DNA from: Nitrosopumilus sp.
GTDB taxonomy: Archaea; Thermoproteota; Nitrososphaeria; Nitrososphaerales; Nitrosopumilaceae
Assembly: GCA_965224195.1 (NCBI GenBank)
Contig: OZ245040.1
Location: forward strand, 1,120,001 to 1,184,000
Length of the DNA stretch: 64,000 nucleotides
Direction of reading: 5' to 3'
Position numbers and translations under genes: made by a program. The notes under the pieces are model-generated. The model searched no databases. It saw only the letters and a program-made list of their open reading frames with translations, and was not told where the DNA came from. Of the stretch, positions 2,274 through 41,245 are shown in pieces (the stretch's first letter is position 1; every line of letters starts with the position of its first letter).

Positions 2274-4373
2274 TTGGGAACAGCCGATCTAAAACTAGGA
2301 ACCGTAATTTTACCAAGAAGTGAGTCGCCAAAAGCAATTTCTAGACTAACAGAGTTTGAGTGGTATCACAAAATTGATTCTGCTGATGATTTAGTTACGC
2401 CTGAAATTGATGATTTACTACTAAAAGCACAGCAAACTTACCAATCCATTGATGATGTCATCAAAGGAATGGGGATTCCTCTAGAAGTAGGAATTATGGA
2501 GATTTTGTTCAAAGGTACTGTAATCAAGAAAAAAGACTATGAGATTAATGAAATTGAAGATATGGTAGAGCAGATTACTAAAGAATCTCCATCAATTATT
2601 GATAAACCAGCATCACTGTTAGAAGAAGCCGCAACTGCAAGAGTTTCCATTGAGGAATACAAGTCTCTCAAAGATACCTTAGAAGTAATCAGAAAAATGA
2701 AGATGGATATTTCTGGATTTGGTTTAATGAGACACTTTTTTACAAATCTCTTTGTGATTAATTCTGCTGACTTTGATGAGATTAACCGTTCACTTGAAGG
2801 CATTACAGTTTACAAATATGATTTAGAGAATAAAGAAAAAGCAGCAATCTTAGTAATTTCAGATACTACTGATTCTGAAAAAGTTTTAAAAGTTTTAAGA
2901 AGTTTCAATTCAAACTCATTTAAAATTCCAGAAGGATTTCCTCAAATTCCTAGTGATGCATATGCATTAGCAGAATCAAAAATTAAAGAACTAGAAACAA
3001 AACAAGCTTCAATTAAAAAAGAATTAGGAAAAATTACAAAGAAAATTAGACGAGATATTCTAGCACTTCATGAGAAATCACAAGTTGCAAAAGATGTTCT
3101 TGAGACTTTGAGAAAACCTGGAGGAACAAAAAACTTTGCAGTGATTCAGGGCTTTATTCCAAAGAAGATGGAAGCAAAATTCACAGAATCAACTAAACAA
3201 TGGATGTCAGTTGTTGAGGACATCACAGATCCTAAACTAAAAGAAGAGATTCCAACCTTATTTGACAATAAACGATTTGTTAGAACTTTTGAAGTGATCA
3301 CAAAAAGTCAAGGTATTCCAAAGGCCGGAGAGCCAGATCCAACGCCTATGATTGCCCTAATGTGGCCAATTTTCTACGGATTGATGTTTGCAGATATGGG
3401 TCACGGATTATTACTTATGGCATTAGGATTACTATTCAAATTCAAAGGACAAGGCGAGCTATCAAAATGGGGAATGCTCATTGCAATCTCTGGTGCATCA
3501 GCAGCTATTGCTGGTGTAGGCGCAGGAGAAGCGTTTGGTTTCCATCTTGATCATATGGGTCCATTTGAAGGATTGTTAGAAGAAGGTGGAGCATTACATT
3601 CTGTTAGTTGGTTAGTTGGAATTCTCAGTGTTGCTGAATTAACATTTGATCAAGTAATCAATATTCTCAAAGTTTCATTATTCATTGGAATTGTACATTT
3701 AGTTTGGGCAATGACTCTACGTGTAATTAGATTAGCAAAAGAAGGGCACAAGATGGTAGTCTTTACTGAAGCAATTCCAAACATTGCACTTTACGGAGGA
3801 ATTGTTGTTATCATGATGTGTGCAATTGGTTCACAATATGATGTGATGAACATGTATTCCAAAGTTCATACAGAATCTGTTCCTTGGGTTACAATGTTCT
3901 TAGGAGATTGGGCACAAGTTTGGATTATTACAAGAATTTCAATTATTATCGTAATTGCATCAATGGCAATCATGATGGTTGGTGGTGTAATGCATGCAAA
4001 GAAACATCCTGAAGATGGAGCGGATCCTGCAAGTGTCATCATGGAAGTTCTCTTAGGTAAAACAGTAGAGAGTTTAGCTCACACAATTAGTTATGCTCGG
4101 CTTGGAATTATGTTACTTGTACATGCGGCTTTGCTGATGACAGTAAACAATGCGTTCACATCATTAGGTGGTTCTGAATCAGGTGCTGCAATGGTCATGA
4201 TCATTGGAGGTAACTTAGGAATTATGATGATTGAAGGATTAATTGTGTATATCCAGTCACTCAGATTGCACTTGTATGAATTCTTTACAAAATGGTACGT
4301 AGGTGGTGCACAACCATTTAGACAAATTAGACCAGAGTTGATTTACAATCAATTCATTTGGAAGAAAAAATAG
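2274..4373 (+). CDS. atpI: A/V-type ATP synthase subunit I (a)
   Basis: 699 aa; DPTP..FYGLMFADMGHG, SYARL and QSLRLHLYEFFTKWY motifs; hydrophobic C-half. Confidence 0.96.
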   Translation: MGTADLKLGTVILPRSESPKAISRLTEFEWYHKIDSADDLVTPEIDDLLLKAQQTYQSIDDVIKGMGIPLEVGIMEILFKGTVIKKKDYEINEIEDMVEQITKESPSIIDKPASLLEEAATARVSIEEYKSLKDTLEVIRKMKMDISGFGLMRHFFTNLFVINSADFDEINRSLEGITVYKYDLENKEKAAILVISDTTDSEKVLKVLRSFNSNSFKIPEGFPQIPSDAYALAESKIKELETKQASIKKELGKITKKIRRDILALHEKSQVAKDVLETLRKPGGTKNFAVIQGFIPKKMEAKFTESTKQWMSVVEDITDPKLKEEIPTLFDNKRFVRTFEVITKSQGIPKAGEPDPTPMIALMWPIFYGLMFADMGHGLLLMALGLLFKFKGQGELSKWGMLIAISGASAAIAGVGAGEAFGFHLDHMGPFEGLLEEGGALHSVSWLVGILSVAELTFDQVINILKVSLFIGIVHLVWAMTLRVIRLAKEGHKMVVFTEAIPNIALYGGIVVIMMCAIGSQYDVMNMYSKVHTESVPWVTMFLGDWAQVWIITRISIIIVIASMAIMMVGGVMHAKKHPEDGADPASVIMEVLLGKTVESLAHTISYARLGIMLLVHAALLMTVNNAFTSLGGSESGAAMVMIIGGNLGIMMIEGLIVYIQSLRLHLYEFFTKWYVGGAQPFRQIRPELIYNQFIWKKK

Positions 4374-9509: not shown

Positions 9510-9636
9510 AATAACTATGACAAAAGAGATTGAATCAAAGATTCGAGAATCAAACATCGTTTTTGCTCCCTCATTGCCACGACCAAGAATAACTATGACA
9601 AAAGAGATTGAATCAAAGATTCGAGAATCAAACATC
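9510..9636 (+). repeat. 49-bp perfect direct repeat flanking a 29-bp insert
   Basis: AATAACTATGACAAAAGAGATTGAATCAAAGATTCGAGAATCAAACATC at 9510-9558 and 9588-9636. Confidence 0.95.
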
Positions 9637-9780
9637 ACTAATGCTGAATTAATTGCACATTTTAGAGAGAAATGTAAGATTTGTGGCCATCATCGAATTA
9701 TGCACAATGAACTAGGTGTATGTGAAGGTGTAATGAACAAGCCATGTACATCTGGCTGTGATCTGTTTGAAGCAGAATAA
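9517..9780 (+). CDS. Small Cys/His-rich metal-binding protein with duplicated N-terminus
   Basis: CKICGHHRIMH..C..CTSGC; ancestral-length version can start at the second ATG (9595). Confidence 0.75.
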   Translation: MTKEIESKIRESNIVFAPSLPRPRITMTKEIESKIRESNITNAELIAHFREKCKICGHHRIMHNELGVCEGVMNKPCTSGCDLFEAE

Positions 9781-17444: not shown

Positions 17445-17813
17445 TTGAAAGACATGTCCTTTGATAGAGAAGAAAGAGAAATGCACACCGCTACATGTGG
17501 TGACTGTGGAAATGAATGTCAAGTACCATTCAAACCAAAAGAAGACAGACCTGTTTATTGCAGAGAATGCTTCCAAAGCCACAAACCTGAACCAAGACAA
17601 GGTGGGGGTAGATTTGGTGGAAGATCCGGCGGTGGAAGATCTGGCGGATTTGGTGGAGATAGAGGTTCTAGATTTGGTAATCGCGACGACAGACCACGAG
17701 AAATGCATGACGCAAAATGTGGTGACTGTGGAAATGAATGTCAAGTACCATTCAAACCAAAAGAAGACAGACCTGTTTATTGCAGAGAATGCTTCCAAAG
17801 CCACAAAAATTAG
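17445..17813 (+). CDS. Tandem CxxC-x17-CxxC zinc-finger protein with RGG linker
   Basis: Two copies of CGDCGNECQVPFKPKEDRPVYCRECF separated by a GGR-rich tract. Confidence 0.9.
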   Translation: MKDMSFDREEREMHTATCGDCGNECQVPFKPKEDRPVYCRECFQSHKPEPRQGGGRFGGRSGGGRSGGFGGDRGSRFGNRDDRPREMHDAKCGDCGNECQVPFKPKEDRPVYCRECFQSHKN

Positions 17814-37061: not shown

Positions 37062-38653
37062 ATGGCACTGCTTTATGTTTTTATGGCATTGCTAATTTTG
37101 TCCAGTTTTATTCCGTTATCTTACTCTGAAGATATCAGGGGGTCGCATCATGATTCTAAAATACACATGCAGATTCAGGGCGATACAACATCAGGCAAGA
37201 TAACACACAAGGATGTCCAGTATTCATGGGATGACATAAAGTTAATTTATAAAAATCAAAAGCTGTACATATTTGATAATGATATAAAAATTCTGGCAAA
37301 ACAAGTAGCAGATTACAAGTATCTGATAATTGCAAAGCTTGCAGATGATGATGGCGTCAGATTGAGGTTCTTGTCTGATGTATCAGAGCCTGCAAAAAAC
37401 ACTGCACAGCGCAATCTGTTGGATGAAATGAATCAAAAAACTTTAGAGTCTGTCAAGTCTGAACATGACATGACTTTTAAAGAAAAACAATTGCTAGAAA
37501 AGGAGAAAAAAACAGCAGAGGCAAAAAAGATATCAGATGACAGACTGGAAAGAATTGCAGAGCAAAATACAAAGAATATGAATGGCAAGACATCTCATGG
37601 CATTATGGAGGACTGGAAGGAATCATAAAAACAGACGGGTATGAAATTGATAACTGATGATTCTAAAAAGACGGTAAAGCAGGATCCAAAAAAAGATGTT
37701 GTAAATACAGTACAGAAAACAAAGGTATACATTTCTGTTCCGCATCATGTAGAGTGGAAAAATACGCTGCGATATGATATACTAGTTACTGATGATGCAC
37801 GCATCAATATGTTGATGACTACAACTCTTTTGTAGGAAATGTACTATCTGATGTTGCAATAGATGGAACCATAAAGAATCCTGATGGCCAAACAGTTCAT
37901 AAATTCAAAGGTGTGACTTCTGCATCTGGCTCATATGCTAACAGCTGGCTTGTACCGGATAATTCCAACACTCGTGGGCAATACACTTTGGAGATAAATT
38001 CTGTGTTTGGGAAACAAAGAGATAACAAGCTGGTTTCATTTTATGTACTGCCAATTGCTAAAGGTTCTTTTAACAATCCACCAGTAGCTGACGCTGGAAT
38101 TGGAGGGCATTTTCCAAGTGGTAAATTGATAACTTTGGATGGTTCTAAAAGCAATGATCAAGATGATTCAAAGTTATTCTATACTTGGACACAAATAAAA
38201 GGTTTAGATGTTCCAATGAATAAAAAAATTGCAAAACCAACTTTTACAATTCCTGATATTGCAGGTATGTTTGAATTTAACCTAGCTGTTAGTGATGGCA
38301 GAAAGTCAGGCAATAATTCATCAAATGTTGCAATATCTTCAATTCATGCAAATGCTGGGGAGAATGAAACCTACACTGATGGTACCGCTAATTTTACTCT
38401 AAACTCTGCTGAAATAATACTTGACGGTTCTGAAAGTAAGGATTCTTTAAAGCATTCTTTGGATTATGTGTGGGAAATATTTGGCAATGTTCCAATACAA
38501 AGCACTTTGACAGATTTAAAAATAACAAACCCGACTCAATCTGTGTCTAAATTCATACCTGATGTTATAGGAAAATATAATTTTACTTTAACCATTAGTG
38601 ATAAGGACAAGATAAAAGATTCTGATAATATTATGATAACTATAAAAAAATAA
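37062..38653 (+). pseudogene. Large secreted protein with PKD/REJ-like Ig domains, split in three
   Basis: Signal peptide in 37062-37628; in-frame TAA at 37626-37628; frameshift near 37800; PPVADAG..ITLDGSKSND..YTWTQ and ANAG..ILDGSESKD..YVW repeats. Confidence 0.72.
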
Positions 38654-39058: not shown

Positions 39059-39096
39059 ATATAGATAATCTCAATATAGATAATCTCAATATAGAT
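39059..39096 (+). repeat. 15-bp tandem duplication
   Basis: ATATAGATAATCTCA x2 plus ATATAGAT. Confidence 0.9.
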
Positions 39097-39162
39097 CAAC
39101 AATGTTAGAATTTCAAGAATTTAAGGAAATTATAAAAGATTATGTGGCCATAAGAACTTGAC

Positions 39163-39275
39163 AGAATTGGATTGGAATTGTATTCTTTAGTAAGGATCAC
39201 CTTTTGATATGGCTTCTGCAAGGTCCTTGCCATCTAAGAATTGGATTGGAATTGTATTCTTTAGTAAGGATCACC
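39163..39275 (+). repeat. 39-bp perfect direct repeat flanking a 35-bp insert
   Basis: AGAATTGGATTGGAATTGTATTCTTTAGTAAGGATCACC at 39163-39201 and 39237-39275. Confidence 0.95.
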
Positions 39276-39403
39276 AAAGGTAAACACATGAGATTTACAA
39301 AAGGAACAAAGGAGGTTTGACAAGACGTGGGGAAAAAGCCAAGCGTGAAAGACTGTCAAAGTCTGAACGGAATATATATAACGTATCATTGTGATAATAT
39401 GAA

Positions 39404-41245
39404 ATGATGTCTGCAGGACTGTATGCACTGGTACTGCTTGCATCCCTGTCAGTCCTCCTGCTTTCAAGTACAATCAGTACAGCTGATGCAACCAATCATA
39501 TTCCTCCAGTACTGAAAAATCCAACTGGCCTCGATGTGTATTCAACTCCAGTCTCTGCCACACTATCCTGGTATGCACCTATAGTAGATGCCAACGATGA
39601 CTTTGCATCTGAGAATATTCGTTATGTCGTAAGTGTCCATGATGGTACTAGTGGTGCTAAATTATCTGAACATAAGAATTATTACAGCGCAGATGGCAAG
39701 TTTTATTCACTTTCTGTATATGGTTTGACTCCTGGCAAGGCATATTCTTTCTCGCTTTATGCATATGTTGATACAAATAACAGTATTAGATCTGATACCT
39801 TGTCTCATGGCTTTACGAGCTTATCTCCGGGTGGTCCTATTATCCCTGGCCCACCAGTATTTACTTTAAAAGAAATAATATCCAATACCCAGGCCATATT
39901 CACAATTGAAAGGCCTGCAAAGGTGTTTCCTGGCGATATAGCACATTATGTTTTACAGTATACCTGCGGCTCTGGTGACAAAGAACATACCTACGGCGCC
40001 AAGACATCTCTCAACCCTAATGCTGAGATACGTGTAATGCCTGATAGATCAGGTGTTGGCCAGTATACGACTGTTGATGTAGGAGCATCTGGAAATATCG
40101 ACTCTTGCACTTTTAAGATTATCACCAAACTTGATTATAAAATATCTAGTGATTGGTATTCGTTTACTGTATCATATCCTGACGCAGATCCACTAAAAGA
40201 TCACAAAAAGAAGAAGAGTACTGGCAGCTCAAATGAGCACTACAAAAAGCCAACCTTTGGATTATCCCATCTGACAGAAAGTCTAATTGTAAATAATGGC
40301 ATGTGCCTTAATGACAGCTGCGTTGACGTTGTATCATGGCACACAAAATATCCGGAGGATAAAATATTGATAGACACCACAAACTATCTGCAGGCCAAAA
40401 TGTACACTGATAAAACTTTGCGATATGTAGAGTTTTTCTTTGGAGTGCCAAGGCCTGGAGATGCATCTAATGCAGAGGTATTCGTAAAGGTAAGCCTGTC
40501 TAGAAACTATACCAGTCCAAATAACTATGATGTAACTGGCATCAGTACCATTGATGCAGAAGGTTTGCTGGATGGCACTGTAACTGCTGCAACCATACAG
40601 CCAAGCAAATGTCTTAGTGCAGATGCCGAACCAAACTGTCACACTGTAACATTGCAGTTTGATTTCAACGAGGCGCCAATACACAGGGCATTTGCCATAG
40701 CGGCAGTTGACATGGACAGACGAGTCCATACAAATTACTTTAATGACGGCTTTGTGGTACTTGGCGAATCACTAAATCCAGCAGATATGCACCATGTTGC
40801 AAACAGTGGCAAGTATCACTCTAATGAATATGCAAGTACGCACCAGCTGACACTGACCCAGACAGACAGGGCCAAGAACCTGTGGGCTGACCAGTGGGGA
40901 TTTGCCTGGACACAAAATGACCATGGTACATGGCTCCAGCTGGAACGAGATGAGTTTGTACGACACCAGGATGACATTAGCAGCGTAATGACCAGAGTAA
41001 ACTCTAACTATGATAGTATGATATCTCATGAGAGGGACCGCGCATTACAGCATGCAAAGGATATGTATGGCAGCATATATGACAAACCATCCTCTGATCT
41101 GGCAGAGCCTGTAACCATATGGATTGTGCCCTCACCGTCAGGCAAGCTACAAAACCCGGAGATACTTGATGCAATGAAACTGGAGGAAGCAAAGGCAATG
41201 AGCTATTTGCAGCATATGGTACGCGCAGACATGTCGCGTGAATGA
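39404..41245 (+). CDS. Secreted fibronectin type III domain protein
   Basis: Signal peptide; PTGL..SATLSWYAP..YVV..VYGLTPGKAYSFSLYA FN3 signature; long unassigned C-terminal domain. Confidence 0.82.
   Translation: MMSAGLYALVLLASLSVLLLSSTISTADATNHIPPVLKNPTGLDVYSTPVSATLSWYAPIVDANDDFASENIRYVVSVHDGTSGAKLSEHKNYYSADGKFYSLSVYGLTPGKAYSFSLYAYVDTNNSIRSDTLSHGFTSLSPGGPIIPGPPVFTLKEIISNTQAIFTIERPAKVFPGDIAHYVLQYTCGSGDKEHTYGAKTSLNPNAEIRVMPDRSGVGQYTTVDVGASGNIDSCTFKIITKLDYKISSDWYSFTVSYPDADPLKDHKKKKSTGSSNEHYKKPTFGLSHLTESLIVNNGMCLNDSCVDVVSWHTKYPEDKILIDTTNYLQAKMYTDKTLRYVEFFFGVPRPGDASNAEVFVKVSLSRNYTSPNNYDVTGISTIDAEGLLDGTVTAATIQPSKCLSADAEPNCHTVTLQFDFNEAPIHRAFAIAAVDMDRRVHTNYFNDGFVVLGESLNPADMHHVANSGKYHSNEYASTHQLTLTQTDRAKNLWADQWGFAWTQNDHGTWLQLERDEFVRHQDDISSVMTRVNSNYDSMISHERDRALQHAKDMYGSIYDKPSSDLAEPVTIWIVPSPSGKLQNPEILDAMKLEEAKAMSYLQHMVRADMSRE

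Follow-up and report, generated by a model that had tools for sequence, protein, structure and literature searches.

A repeat-insert-repeat unit in a Nitrosopumilus genome is very probably an off-target CRISPR spacer integration and belongs to a genome-wide class

The element considered here, scar 2, occupies positions 39163-39275 of a 64,000-nucleotide (nt) stretch of a Nitrosopumilus genome (the window, which is G000:C1:1120001-1184000, where G000 is this genome of 2.07 Mb in 2 contigs with a GC content of 33.6%, and C1 is the contig). We conclude that scar 2 very probably goes back to a single spacer integration, off-target (non-canonical), carried out by an adaptation complex of the genome's own CRISPR systems. 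What speaks for this conclusion is the geometry of the unit, the presence of many parallel events in the same genome, a border motif, inserts derived from the host's own DNA and intact adaptation genes, and it is from these observations that we infer the chemistry of integration and the identity of the acting module. According to the scheme we propose, a Cas1-Cas2 integrase carrying a prespacer of ~35-38 nt would attack two phosphodiester bonds, one on each strand and ~36 base pairs (bp) from each other, in ordinary chromosomal DNA rather than at the borders of the leader-proximal repeat. Gap repair would then duplicate the intervening ~36 bp, leaving a segment, the spacer and the segment again, and the target DNA would have been what is left, without function, of a cas operon, with a surface-protein gene on either side. 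Coordinates beginning with C1 refer to that contig of G000; scar coordinates and those marked as such refer to the window.

Scar 2 consists of a perfect 39-nt direct repeat, AGAATTGGATTGGAATTGTATTCTTTAGTAAGGATCACC, whose copies at 39163-39201 and 39237-39275 (no strand assigned) are 100% identical and lie 74 nt apart from start to start, and of a unique 35-nt insert between them, TTTTGATATGGCTTCTGCAAGGTCCTTGCCATCTA (39202-39236), which would tentatively be placed on the minus strand if it has the canonical CRISPR RNA (crRNA) sense. When up to 3 mismatches are allowed, the 39-mer matches exactly 2 places in the window, where 0.00 are expected from 100 shuffles; in the whole genome it is found only at these two sites, and the 35-mer insert only once. 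The perfect repeats flanking a 35-nt insert that an earlier note on this DNA had described are thus borne out. The insert holds an imperfect palindrome, GCAAGG-T-CCTTGC. The true duplication is likely to be somewhat shorter than the visible repeat, namely the 36 nt at 39166-39201 that would start with ATTGGATTGG: in the register of the border motif described below, scar 2 is read in the orientation of the window with a shift of 3, giving a 36-nt segment from ATTGGATTGG to GGATCACC and an insert of 38 nt in which the AGA at 39237-39239 is counted.

Comparison of the locus with its own genome by blastn places scar 2 within a small cas-operon remnant. Window positions 39074-39157, on the plus strand, hold the upstream region and the first ~18 codons of a type I-G cas7 (csb1) gene, 95% identical over 84 nt to C1:723002-723084, and positions 39147-39325, also on the plus strand, hold the 3' end of a type I-G gene of the 'Cas3-extension family' (NF049934), ~90% identical to C1:716594-716698. 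Once one unit is removed, 39147-39201 joined to 39276-39325 is ~90% identical to the last codons of the gene at C1:716.6 kb, so that the paralog alignment identifies the 39-mer as part of the coding 3' end of a member of this cas-gene family. The same region is single in the intact paralogous cas locus, where it has no insert and is continuous with both flanks. Because the intact paralog carries the region once, the repeat of scar 2 is duplicated local sequence and not an imported repeat. The cas7 start and the end of the Cas3-extension gene are fused across an 11-nt microhomology, GCCAnAAGAAC, and ~6.4 kb of cas genes that the intact locus has between them are missing. The remnant, ~250 nt of two genes, has neither functional cas genes nor a leader adjacent to it, and its neighbours encode a PKD-domain protein and an fn3-domain protein; scar 2 itself lies in remnant, non-functional DNA.

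The genome carries three CRISPR arrays, each with its own cas1. Array 1 (C1:707205-713740) belongs to a type I-G operon and has 90 identical repeats of 36 nt, ATTTCCGTAACCAAAATGTTACGGCCCCATTGAAGC in the transcribed sense, with spacers of 34-42 nt (mode 36-37) and a period of 70-78 (mode 72-73). Array 2 (C1:941995-946513), accompanied by Cas4, Cas1b and Cas2, has 68 repeats of 30 nt, spacers of 32-39 nt (mode 36-37) and a period of 62-69 (mode 66-67), and array 3 (C1:1457180-1466767) has 132 repeats of 37 nt ending GGATTGAAAC, spacers of 32-48 nt (mode 35-36) and a period of 69-85 (mode 72-73), adjoined by genes for I-B-like Cas7, Cas5 and Cas3 and then for Cas1, Cas2 and Cas4. The type I-G locus is made up, by NCBIfam, of Csb1/Cas7g, Csb2, Cas3g, the 'Cas3-extension family' protein, a Csb2-like C-terminal protein, a Cas4g/Cas1g fusion and Cas2; the fusion is intact (NF049935, 714.7 bits) and stands with Cas2 beside array 1. 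The search for cas1 that the earlier note had proposed found exactly three genes above the TIGR00287 cut-off, each of them beside cas2 and cas4 or fused to cas4. The geometry of scar 2 (repeat 36-39, insert 35-38, period 74) is that of arrays 1 and 3, and its insert length falls inside the spacer ranges of both (34-42 and 32-48 nt). Scar 2 is far (212 kb) from any native array.

Many similar units are scattered over the genome. A scan with exact 14-mer seeds (repeats of 28-60 nt, at least 15 nt between copies) returned 51 isolated two-copy direct repeats at offsets of 30-200, 27 of them with a period of 71-76, and an independent scan of contig C1 (at least 30/34 matches, offsets of 40-140, isolation required) returned 43 isolated units, of which 33 have a period of 70-76. 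Each of these stray units has its own repeat, made of local genomic sequence, and its own insert, different from all others. The units are young, since nearly all repeat pairs are identical. Stray units on C1 outside the window stand, for example, at 3949, 173581, 682088, 703813, 739057, 882675, 886994, 898236, 907258, 911485, 912527, 1238977, 1326527, 1363425, 1490408, 1542932, 1639458, 1692970, 1698884, 1745573, 1892823, 2047816 and 2053230. The set that we examined closely comprises 30 units, chosen for a period of 69-80 and a repeat no shorter than 30 nt, a few of them doubtful (1619806 and scar 1 among these); left out of the 34 listed were 912673 (period 66), 963056 (period 81, repeat 29), 1326359 (period 89) and 1541050 (repeat 28). 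The preferred period recurs along the chromosome, with 2/3, 5/7, 8/12, 7/8 and 8/10 units at period 70-76 in five 400-kb blocks. The suggestion of the earlier note that a recurring process of ectopic Cas1-type spacer integration is at work is accordingly supported by every test made of it, namely by three intact Cas1-Cas2(-Cas4) modules, array-like geometry, ~30-40 further units and a junction bias.

The distribution of the units is somewhat uneven. Eight of them lie within 40 kb at C1:882675-923061, at a distance of roughly 20-60 kb from array 2 and the cas genes beside it. Units at most 60 kb from an array number 11 of 33, where the null is 6.1 (P = 0.03), a weak excess that could possibly reflect a proximity effect or a permissive island.

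The junctions of the units share a motif. We lined the 30 units up where the duplicated segment begins, with orientation and shift (a few bases at most) chosen for each of them, and obtained a border that reads G at its first position (23/30), T/A, G, C (16/30), A at its sixth position (28/30), A (20/30), T (16/30) and G (14/30). The native repeat closes with ...CATTGAAGC, and the reverse complement of that end is this G-T-T-G-C-A-A-T-G-like segment start. In the reading direction of the alignment the native repeat is GCTTCAATGG, with CCATTGAAGC as its reverse complement; the duplicated segment, in other words, has one end that resembles the native repeat end ...ATTGAAGC. The border holds 5.10 bits of information, compared with 3.43±0.28 bits (maximum 4.28) when 200 sets of random sites were handled in the same way, and the mean number of matches to the native decamer is 5.23, compared with 3.50±0.49 at random. 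Across segment and flanks only the border positions are informative, apart from a weak C at -2 and at -4. The enzyme thus appears to recognise ~9 bases at a repeat's spacer-side end and then to measure: the motif-anchored duplicated length has its mode at 36 nt (10/26 units), with 8 units shorter and 8 longer. An unconstrained Gibbs motif search over the repeats was discarded, having drifted to unrelated GAT/GTT words.

The bias that the earlier note had expected at the junctions is thus real, but it is this segment start and not the pair of words that had been put forward, TTTTG (left junction) and AAGAAT (spanning the right junction). Both words are indeed present in scars 1 and 2, but they occur in only 2/30 units and stand in different registers relative to the junction in the two scars. 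We take their sharing to be a coincidence, even though these two scars are the only units in which both words coincide.

The inserts provide a further line of evidence. For 6/30 stray inserts an exact match of 29-38 nt exists at another place in the host chromosome, in some cases with 1-2 further mismatches near an end, and these traceable inserts come from distant loci as spacer-sized pieces of ~35-38 nt. None of the 287 native spacers (89 + 67 + 131) matches the host chromosome, the best case being 22 nt with 1 mismatch, and no stray insert is identical to a native spacer. Mean GC is 41.3% in stray inserts and 40-42% in native spacers, against 33.6% in the genome. We read the stray inserts as an unselected sample of captured prespacers, in which self-derived pieces may survive because stray sites would yield no usable crRNA. 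Stray repeats have no sequence relationship to the native repeat, and scar 2 itself is probably inert as immunity, because its repeats are unlike the native repeat and because self-matching inserts are tolerated in its class.

A comparison with other genomes of the same genus is consistent with a dependence on adaptation genes. While the whole of contig C1 of G000 (3 cas1 genes, GC 33.6%) gave 43 units with 33 at period 70-76, a 400-kb sample of G051 (GC 37.6%), whose 1 cas1 is the I-G fusion and whose I-G locus has a 36-nt repeat ending CCCCATTGAAGC, gave 8 units with 5 at period 72-73, some of them older, with mismatched repeats. The density of stray units is ~1 per 50-80 kb in both genomes. 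No period peak is seen in 400-kb samples of G018 (GC 54.3%) and G002 (GC 52.7%), two imperfect controls in which 0 cas1 genes were found and which gave 4 units each; the one unit at period 72 in each resembles the same coding repeat in both.

Among the other explanations, the one that survives best is that scar 2 was left by repair, as a local duplication and its filler DNA produced by slippage, microhomology-mediated end joining or templated insertion at a break, with no part played by CRISPR proteins. We consider it improbable. The locus does have a history of rearrangement, as the microhomology deletion junction ~6-16 nt to the left of the unit attests, snap-back synthesis can give an imperfect palindrome such as the one in the insert, and scar 1 and a few other units are odd-sized. 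Repair of this kind would, however, leave the shared size unexplained, with 33/43 units in a 7-nt period range that coincides with the native arrays, and it does not account for a common border motif like the end of the native repeat, for traceable inserts that are pieces of spacer size taken from distant loci, or for the absence of the period peak from the two samples without cas1. A simple tandem duplication is ruled out by the unique 35-nt insert, unrelated to the flanks, between the copies.

It is less probable still, and indeed very unlikely, that scar 2 is an orphan mini-CRISPR array of two repeats and one spacer left behind by a lost or foreign system with the 39-mer as its repeat. Such an array would have repeat and spacer sizes (39 and 35 nt) that real arrays have, the unit does sit inside a cas-operon remnant, and the genome has another small orphan I-G-like repeat pair at C1:1626224. 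Against this stands the nature of the 39-mer as the coding 3' end of a cas gene, single and uninterrupted in the intact paralog. It exists in just two copies and matches no CRISPR repeat elsewhere in the genome, a match that the earlier note had named as telling against its reading, and a search of the window against Rfam, whose CRISPR repeat families were covered, gave no family at the gathering score. Furthermore, ~30 units each have a different local repeat, as target duplication predicts and a shared repeat family does not, and neither a leader nor functional cas genes lie alongside.

The footprint of some other integrase, with a casposase or transposase target-site duplication around a tiny remnant, is an explanation to which we give hardly any credence. 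Casposases are Cas1 homologues, and casposons are known in this archaeal group according to the accessible part of PMC8464041; that same source, however, describes a 13-bp duplication for family 1 of Nitrosopumilus and ~14 bp for family 2, around kilobase elements with terminal inverted repeats, whereas scar 2 duplicates 36-39 nt around 35 nt without inverted ends. All three cas1 genes found in this genome, moreover, adjoin cas2, cas4 and CRISPR arrays, and the inserts of ~30 units are mutually unrelated.

Public reads bear on whether the unit exists in cells at all. The k-mer contigs from 4 public runs in 3 studies (one study possibly being the source sample) join the insert to the repeat on both sides with 0 differences; record 4 of X1 covers 39172-39266 and record 26 of X4 covers 39163-39266. 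The contigs break inside the repeat, its outer part in them being mostly 30 letters where the bridging threshold is 31, and only the left junction in record 26 of X4 reaches that threshold. An assembly or amplification chimera absent from cells, which the earlier note had raised, is the least likely explanation of all and close to negligible, for although short tandem structures can come from multiple displacement amplification or mis-assembly and the contigs do mostly stop one letter under the bridging threshold, the genome is in 2 contigs, the insert-repeat joins recur unchanged in these studies and ~30 units with exact native-array geometry cannot be random chimeras; nor is scar 2 without further examples, the other outcome that the note had thought would tell against it.

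Several points nevertheless weigh against off-target spacer integration as the origin of scar 2 and should be set beside the evidence for it. The dependence of unit formation on Cas1-Cas2 is correlative, drawn from comparison of sequences. The fit of scar 2 to the border motif is weak, at 2.9 bits leave-one-out (-1.7 in the opposite orientation), its first base being A where 20/26 units of period 71-76 have G, and because of this weak match its orientation and exact register are tentative. The ruler must also be a loose one, since the motif-anchored lengths scatter over 30-43 nt. No consistent flanking protospacer-adjacent motif (PAM) was found beside the six self-derived protospacers. The hunt for the source of the scar 2 insert, which the earlier note had advised, came back empty-handed: no protospacer was found in its own genome (by k-mers), in viral and metagenome contigs (by the exact 35-mer and, in the viral contigs, by a third-codon-position wobble pattern in one frame) or in phage records, where blastn gave two chance-level 25-nt matches (E 0.3 and 4). 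Most native spacers of any organism are untraceable, so that an untraced insert weakens the claim little. An empty site in relatives, likewise sought at the suggestion of the note, was absent from all 31 genomes (30 relatives and G000), the 2-kb region not being conserved at the DNA level, and no contig from the 4 runs skips the unit, though such contigs drop rare variants and would hide a minority allele; because neither an orthologous nor a read-level empty site was found, the pre-insertion state rests on the paralog. Finally, G018 and G002, with a GC content of ~53-54%, are unlike G000.

The choice among the resident modules is less secure than the process itself. We favour, with moderate confidence, the type I-G Cas4/Cas1-Cas2 module with its 36-nt repeat, because the length mode is 36 and because G051, a genome with the I-G system only, has units of the same class. 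Module 3, with a 37-nt repeat and the same period, may have contributed instead, or both may have. The sites are equally similar to repeat 1 and to repeat 3 (46 and 47 matches of 182 cells), arrays 1 and 3 share their period, and the base composition at the spacer ends does not separate the two modules. Array 1 had no match among phage records, and hence no PAM is derivable from its native spacers. One unit, at C1:912673 (repeat 30 nt, period 66), has the dimensions of array 2 and may have arisen off-target through the second adaptation module.

The units have consequences for the genes they enter. When they are removed in silico, many of the sites turn out to lie inside long open frames. At 739057 a frame of 414 codons has been split into 327 + 120, and frames are also split at 1490408, 1639458, 1363425 and 1228750. 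The unit length is divisible by three in 12/30 cases, and the frame stays open in 10 of these 12, being broken at 1228750 and 1542932; in-frame additions, such as those at 886994, 778956 and 1326527, are stretches of ~24 residues. From the density of the units, the frames that stay open, the self-derived inserts and the weak excess near the arrays we put forward, tentatively and as a claim that could nearly as well prove right as wrong, that off-target spacer integration is a steady and sizeable mutational force in CRISPR-bearing Nitrosopumilus-like archaea rather than a rare accident. If so, each genome would receive dozens of 72-74-bp insertions that split genes or add ~24 residues in frame, and these insertions would keep an uncensored record of captured DNA, self included, while scattering potential seeds of new arrays.

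The set is of use in several respects. It gives a direct estimate of the hidden cost, in split genes and 24-residue insertions, of an active adaptation module, and it amounts to a natural in vivo read-out of integrase recognition, in which ~9 bases at the repeat's spacer-side end count together with a loose ~36-bp ruler and no leader is needed. It is also an uncensored prespacer sample, in which one fifth is self DNA compared with none in the expressed arrays, and it supplies material for testing whether new CRISPR arrays arise by off-target integration. For annotators, it explains puzzling 72-74-bp frameshifting duplications in these genomes.

The earlier note had counted two like events in 30 kb, of which scar 2 fits the class and scar 1 (9510-9636, no strand assigned) is atypical, having exact 49-nt repeats at 9510-9558 and 9588-9636, a 29-nt insert and a period of 78. 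Beyond the exact 49 nt its copies are identical at 57/62 positions. What it duplicates, in frame, is the beginning of a Cys-rich open reading frame of 61 codons, the start codon together with the first 14 codons, and a longer frame from the first ATG (9517-9780) would gain 26 N-terminal residues. Scar 1 is possibly the work of the same process with a slipped ruler, because three other units have long repeats with inserts of 32-35 nt (repeat and insert lengths of 43/32 at C1:798295, 46/34 at C1:923061 and 54/35 at C1:1326359), and we do not count it as certain.

Some further observations concern the surroundings and the native loci. A 15-nt tandem, ATATAGATAATCTCA, stands directly upstream of the cas7 start codon both in the window (39059-39101, two full copies and one partial) and at C1:723058-723100; its conservation in both the intact I-G operon and the remnant makes it a candidate promoter or regulator site for that operon. 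Window positions 38300-38650 are 96% identical to C1:1509723-1510073, positions 40166-40300 are 92-94% identical to three other places in the genome, and the fn3-protein gene has a 74% paralog at C1:1058585, so that scar 2 lies in a variable region of surface-protein gene families. Window positions 17476-17807 hold two direct repeats of 110 nt (identity 95%, spacing 222 nt) that have no relation to the class of stray units. The orphan I-G-like repeat at C1:1626224-1626330 has 4 mismatches to the array-1 repeat and a truncated second copy ~74 nt further on, and forms a tiny degenerate array distant from cas genes. A part of the array 1 spacer region, C1:713013-713034, shares 22 nt with 1 mismatch with spacer 10 of array 3, and judging from this match arrays 1 and 3 may have sampled the same or related invaders.

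How does scar 2 compare with what is known of spacer integration elsewhere? Nivala, Shipman and Church reportedly described, in Nat Microbiol in 2018, non-canonical spacer integration and 'neo-CRISPR' formation with the type I-E system of E. coli. Texts that cite this work (10.1101/148544, PMC7054753 and PMC11788318), in the parts accessible, state that over-produced Cas1-Cas2 gives rarer off-target integrations that are able to spawn new arrays. As in our case, Cas1-Cas2 there places a spacer at a non-CRISPR chromosomal site and leaves a repeat-spacer-repeat unit that is a possible array seed. The E. coli case, as those texts present it, is one of laboratory over-production, whereas here ~30-40 events are fixed in a wild genome, with repeats of 36-37 nt, Cas4-containing modules and three adaptation modules. 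As for natural genomes, the evidence for off-target integration described in the accessible part of 10.1101/148544 is circumstantial and comes from two other species.

A biochemical parallel comes from P. furiosus. As far as the accessible part of PMC6698737 goes, the Cas1-Cas2 of that organism carries out full-site integration at non-CRISPR sites in vitro, with attack points one repeat length apart, and these off-target sites have G/C at the borders and some repeat-like bases and do not need a leader. The attack spacing of one repeat length, the base preference at the border and the independence from a leader are thus common to both. The P. furiosus reactions, again from what can be seen of that paper, took place in vitro on plasmids with a 30-bp ruler, while the events described here are fixed in vivo with a ruler of ~36 bp, their information is confined to ~9 positions at one border and their duplicated lengths range over 30-43 nt.

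For the type I-G system, the accessible part of PMC10504553 reports that the Cas4/Cas1 fusion with Cas2 processes the PAM and integrates directionally at the leader-repeat junction. The same protein family is intact here, and G051, which has only this cas1, has units of the same class; the term 'off-target' does not occur in the main text of that paper, and the six self protospacers found here differ from the reported PAM processing in having no consistent PAM. Ectopic acquisition in Streptococcus thermophilus (PMC7999890, in part) also inserts a spacer away from the leader-proximal repeat, but it does so at a true repeat within an array, whereas scar 2 lies at unrelated chromosomal sequence far from any array. 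The Nitrosopumilus casposon, as described in the accessible part of PMC8464041, shares with our case a Cas1-family integrase, a ruler mechanism, a target-site duplication and the archaeal group; it differs in a 13-bp duplication, a large element, terminal inverted repeats and a sequence-specific target, none of which is seen in scar 2.

The literature that we searched (the full texts of one library) contained no report of such events in Nitrosopumilus or of a natural genome with dozens of them. Taken together, these comparisons indicate that the process itself was already known from E. coli and from work in vitro, that scar 2 is a new natural case of it, and that the genome-wide set of stray units is the more interesting result.

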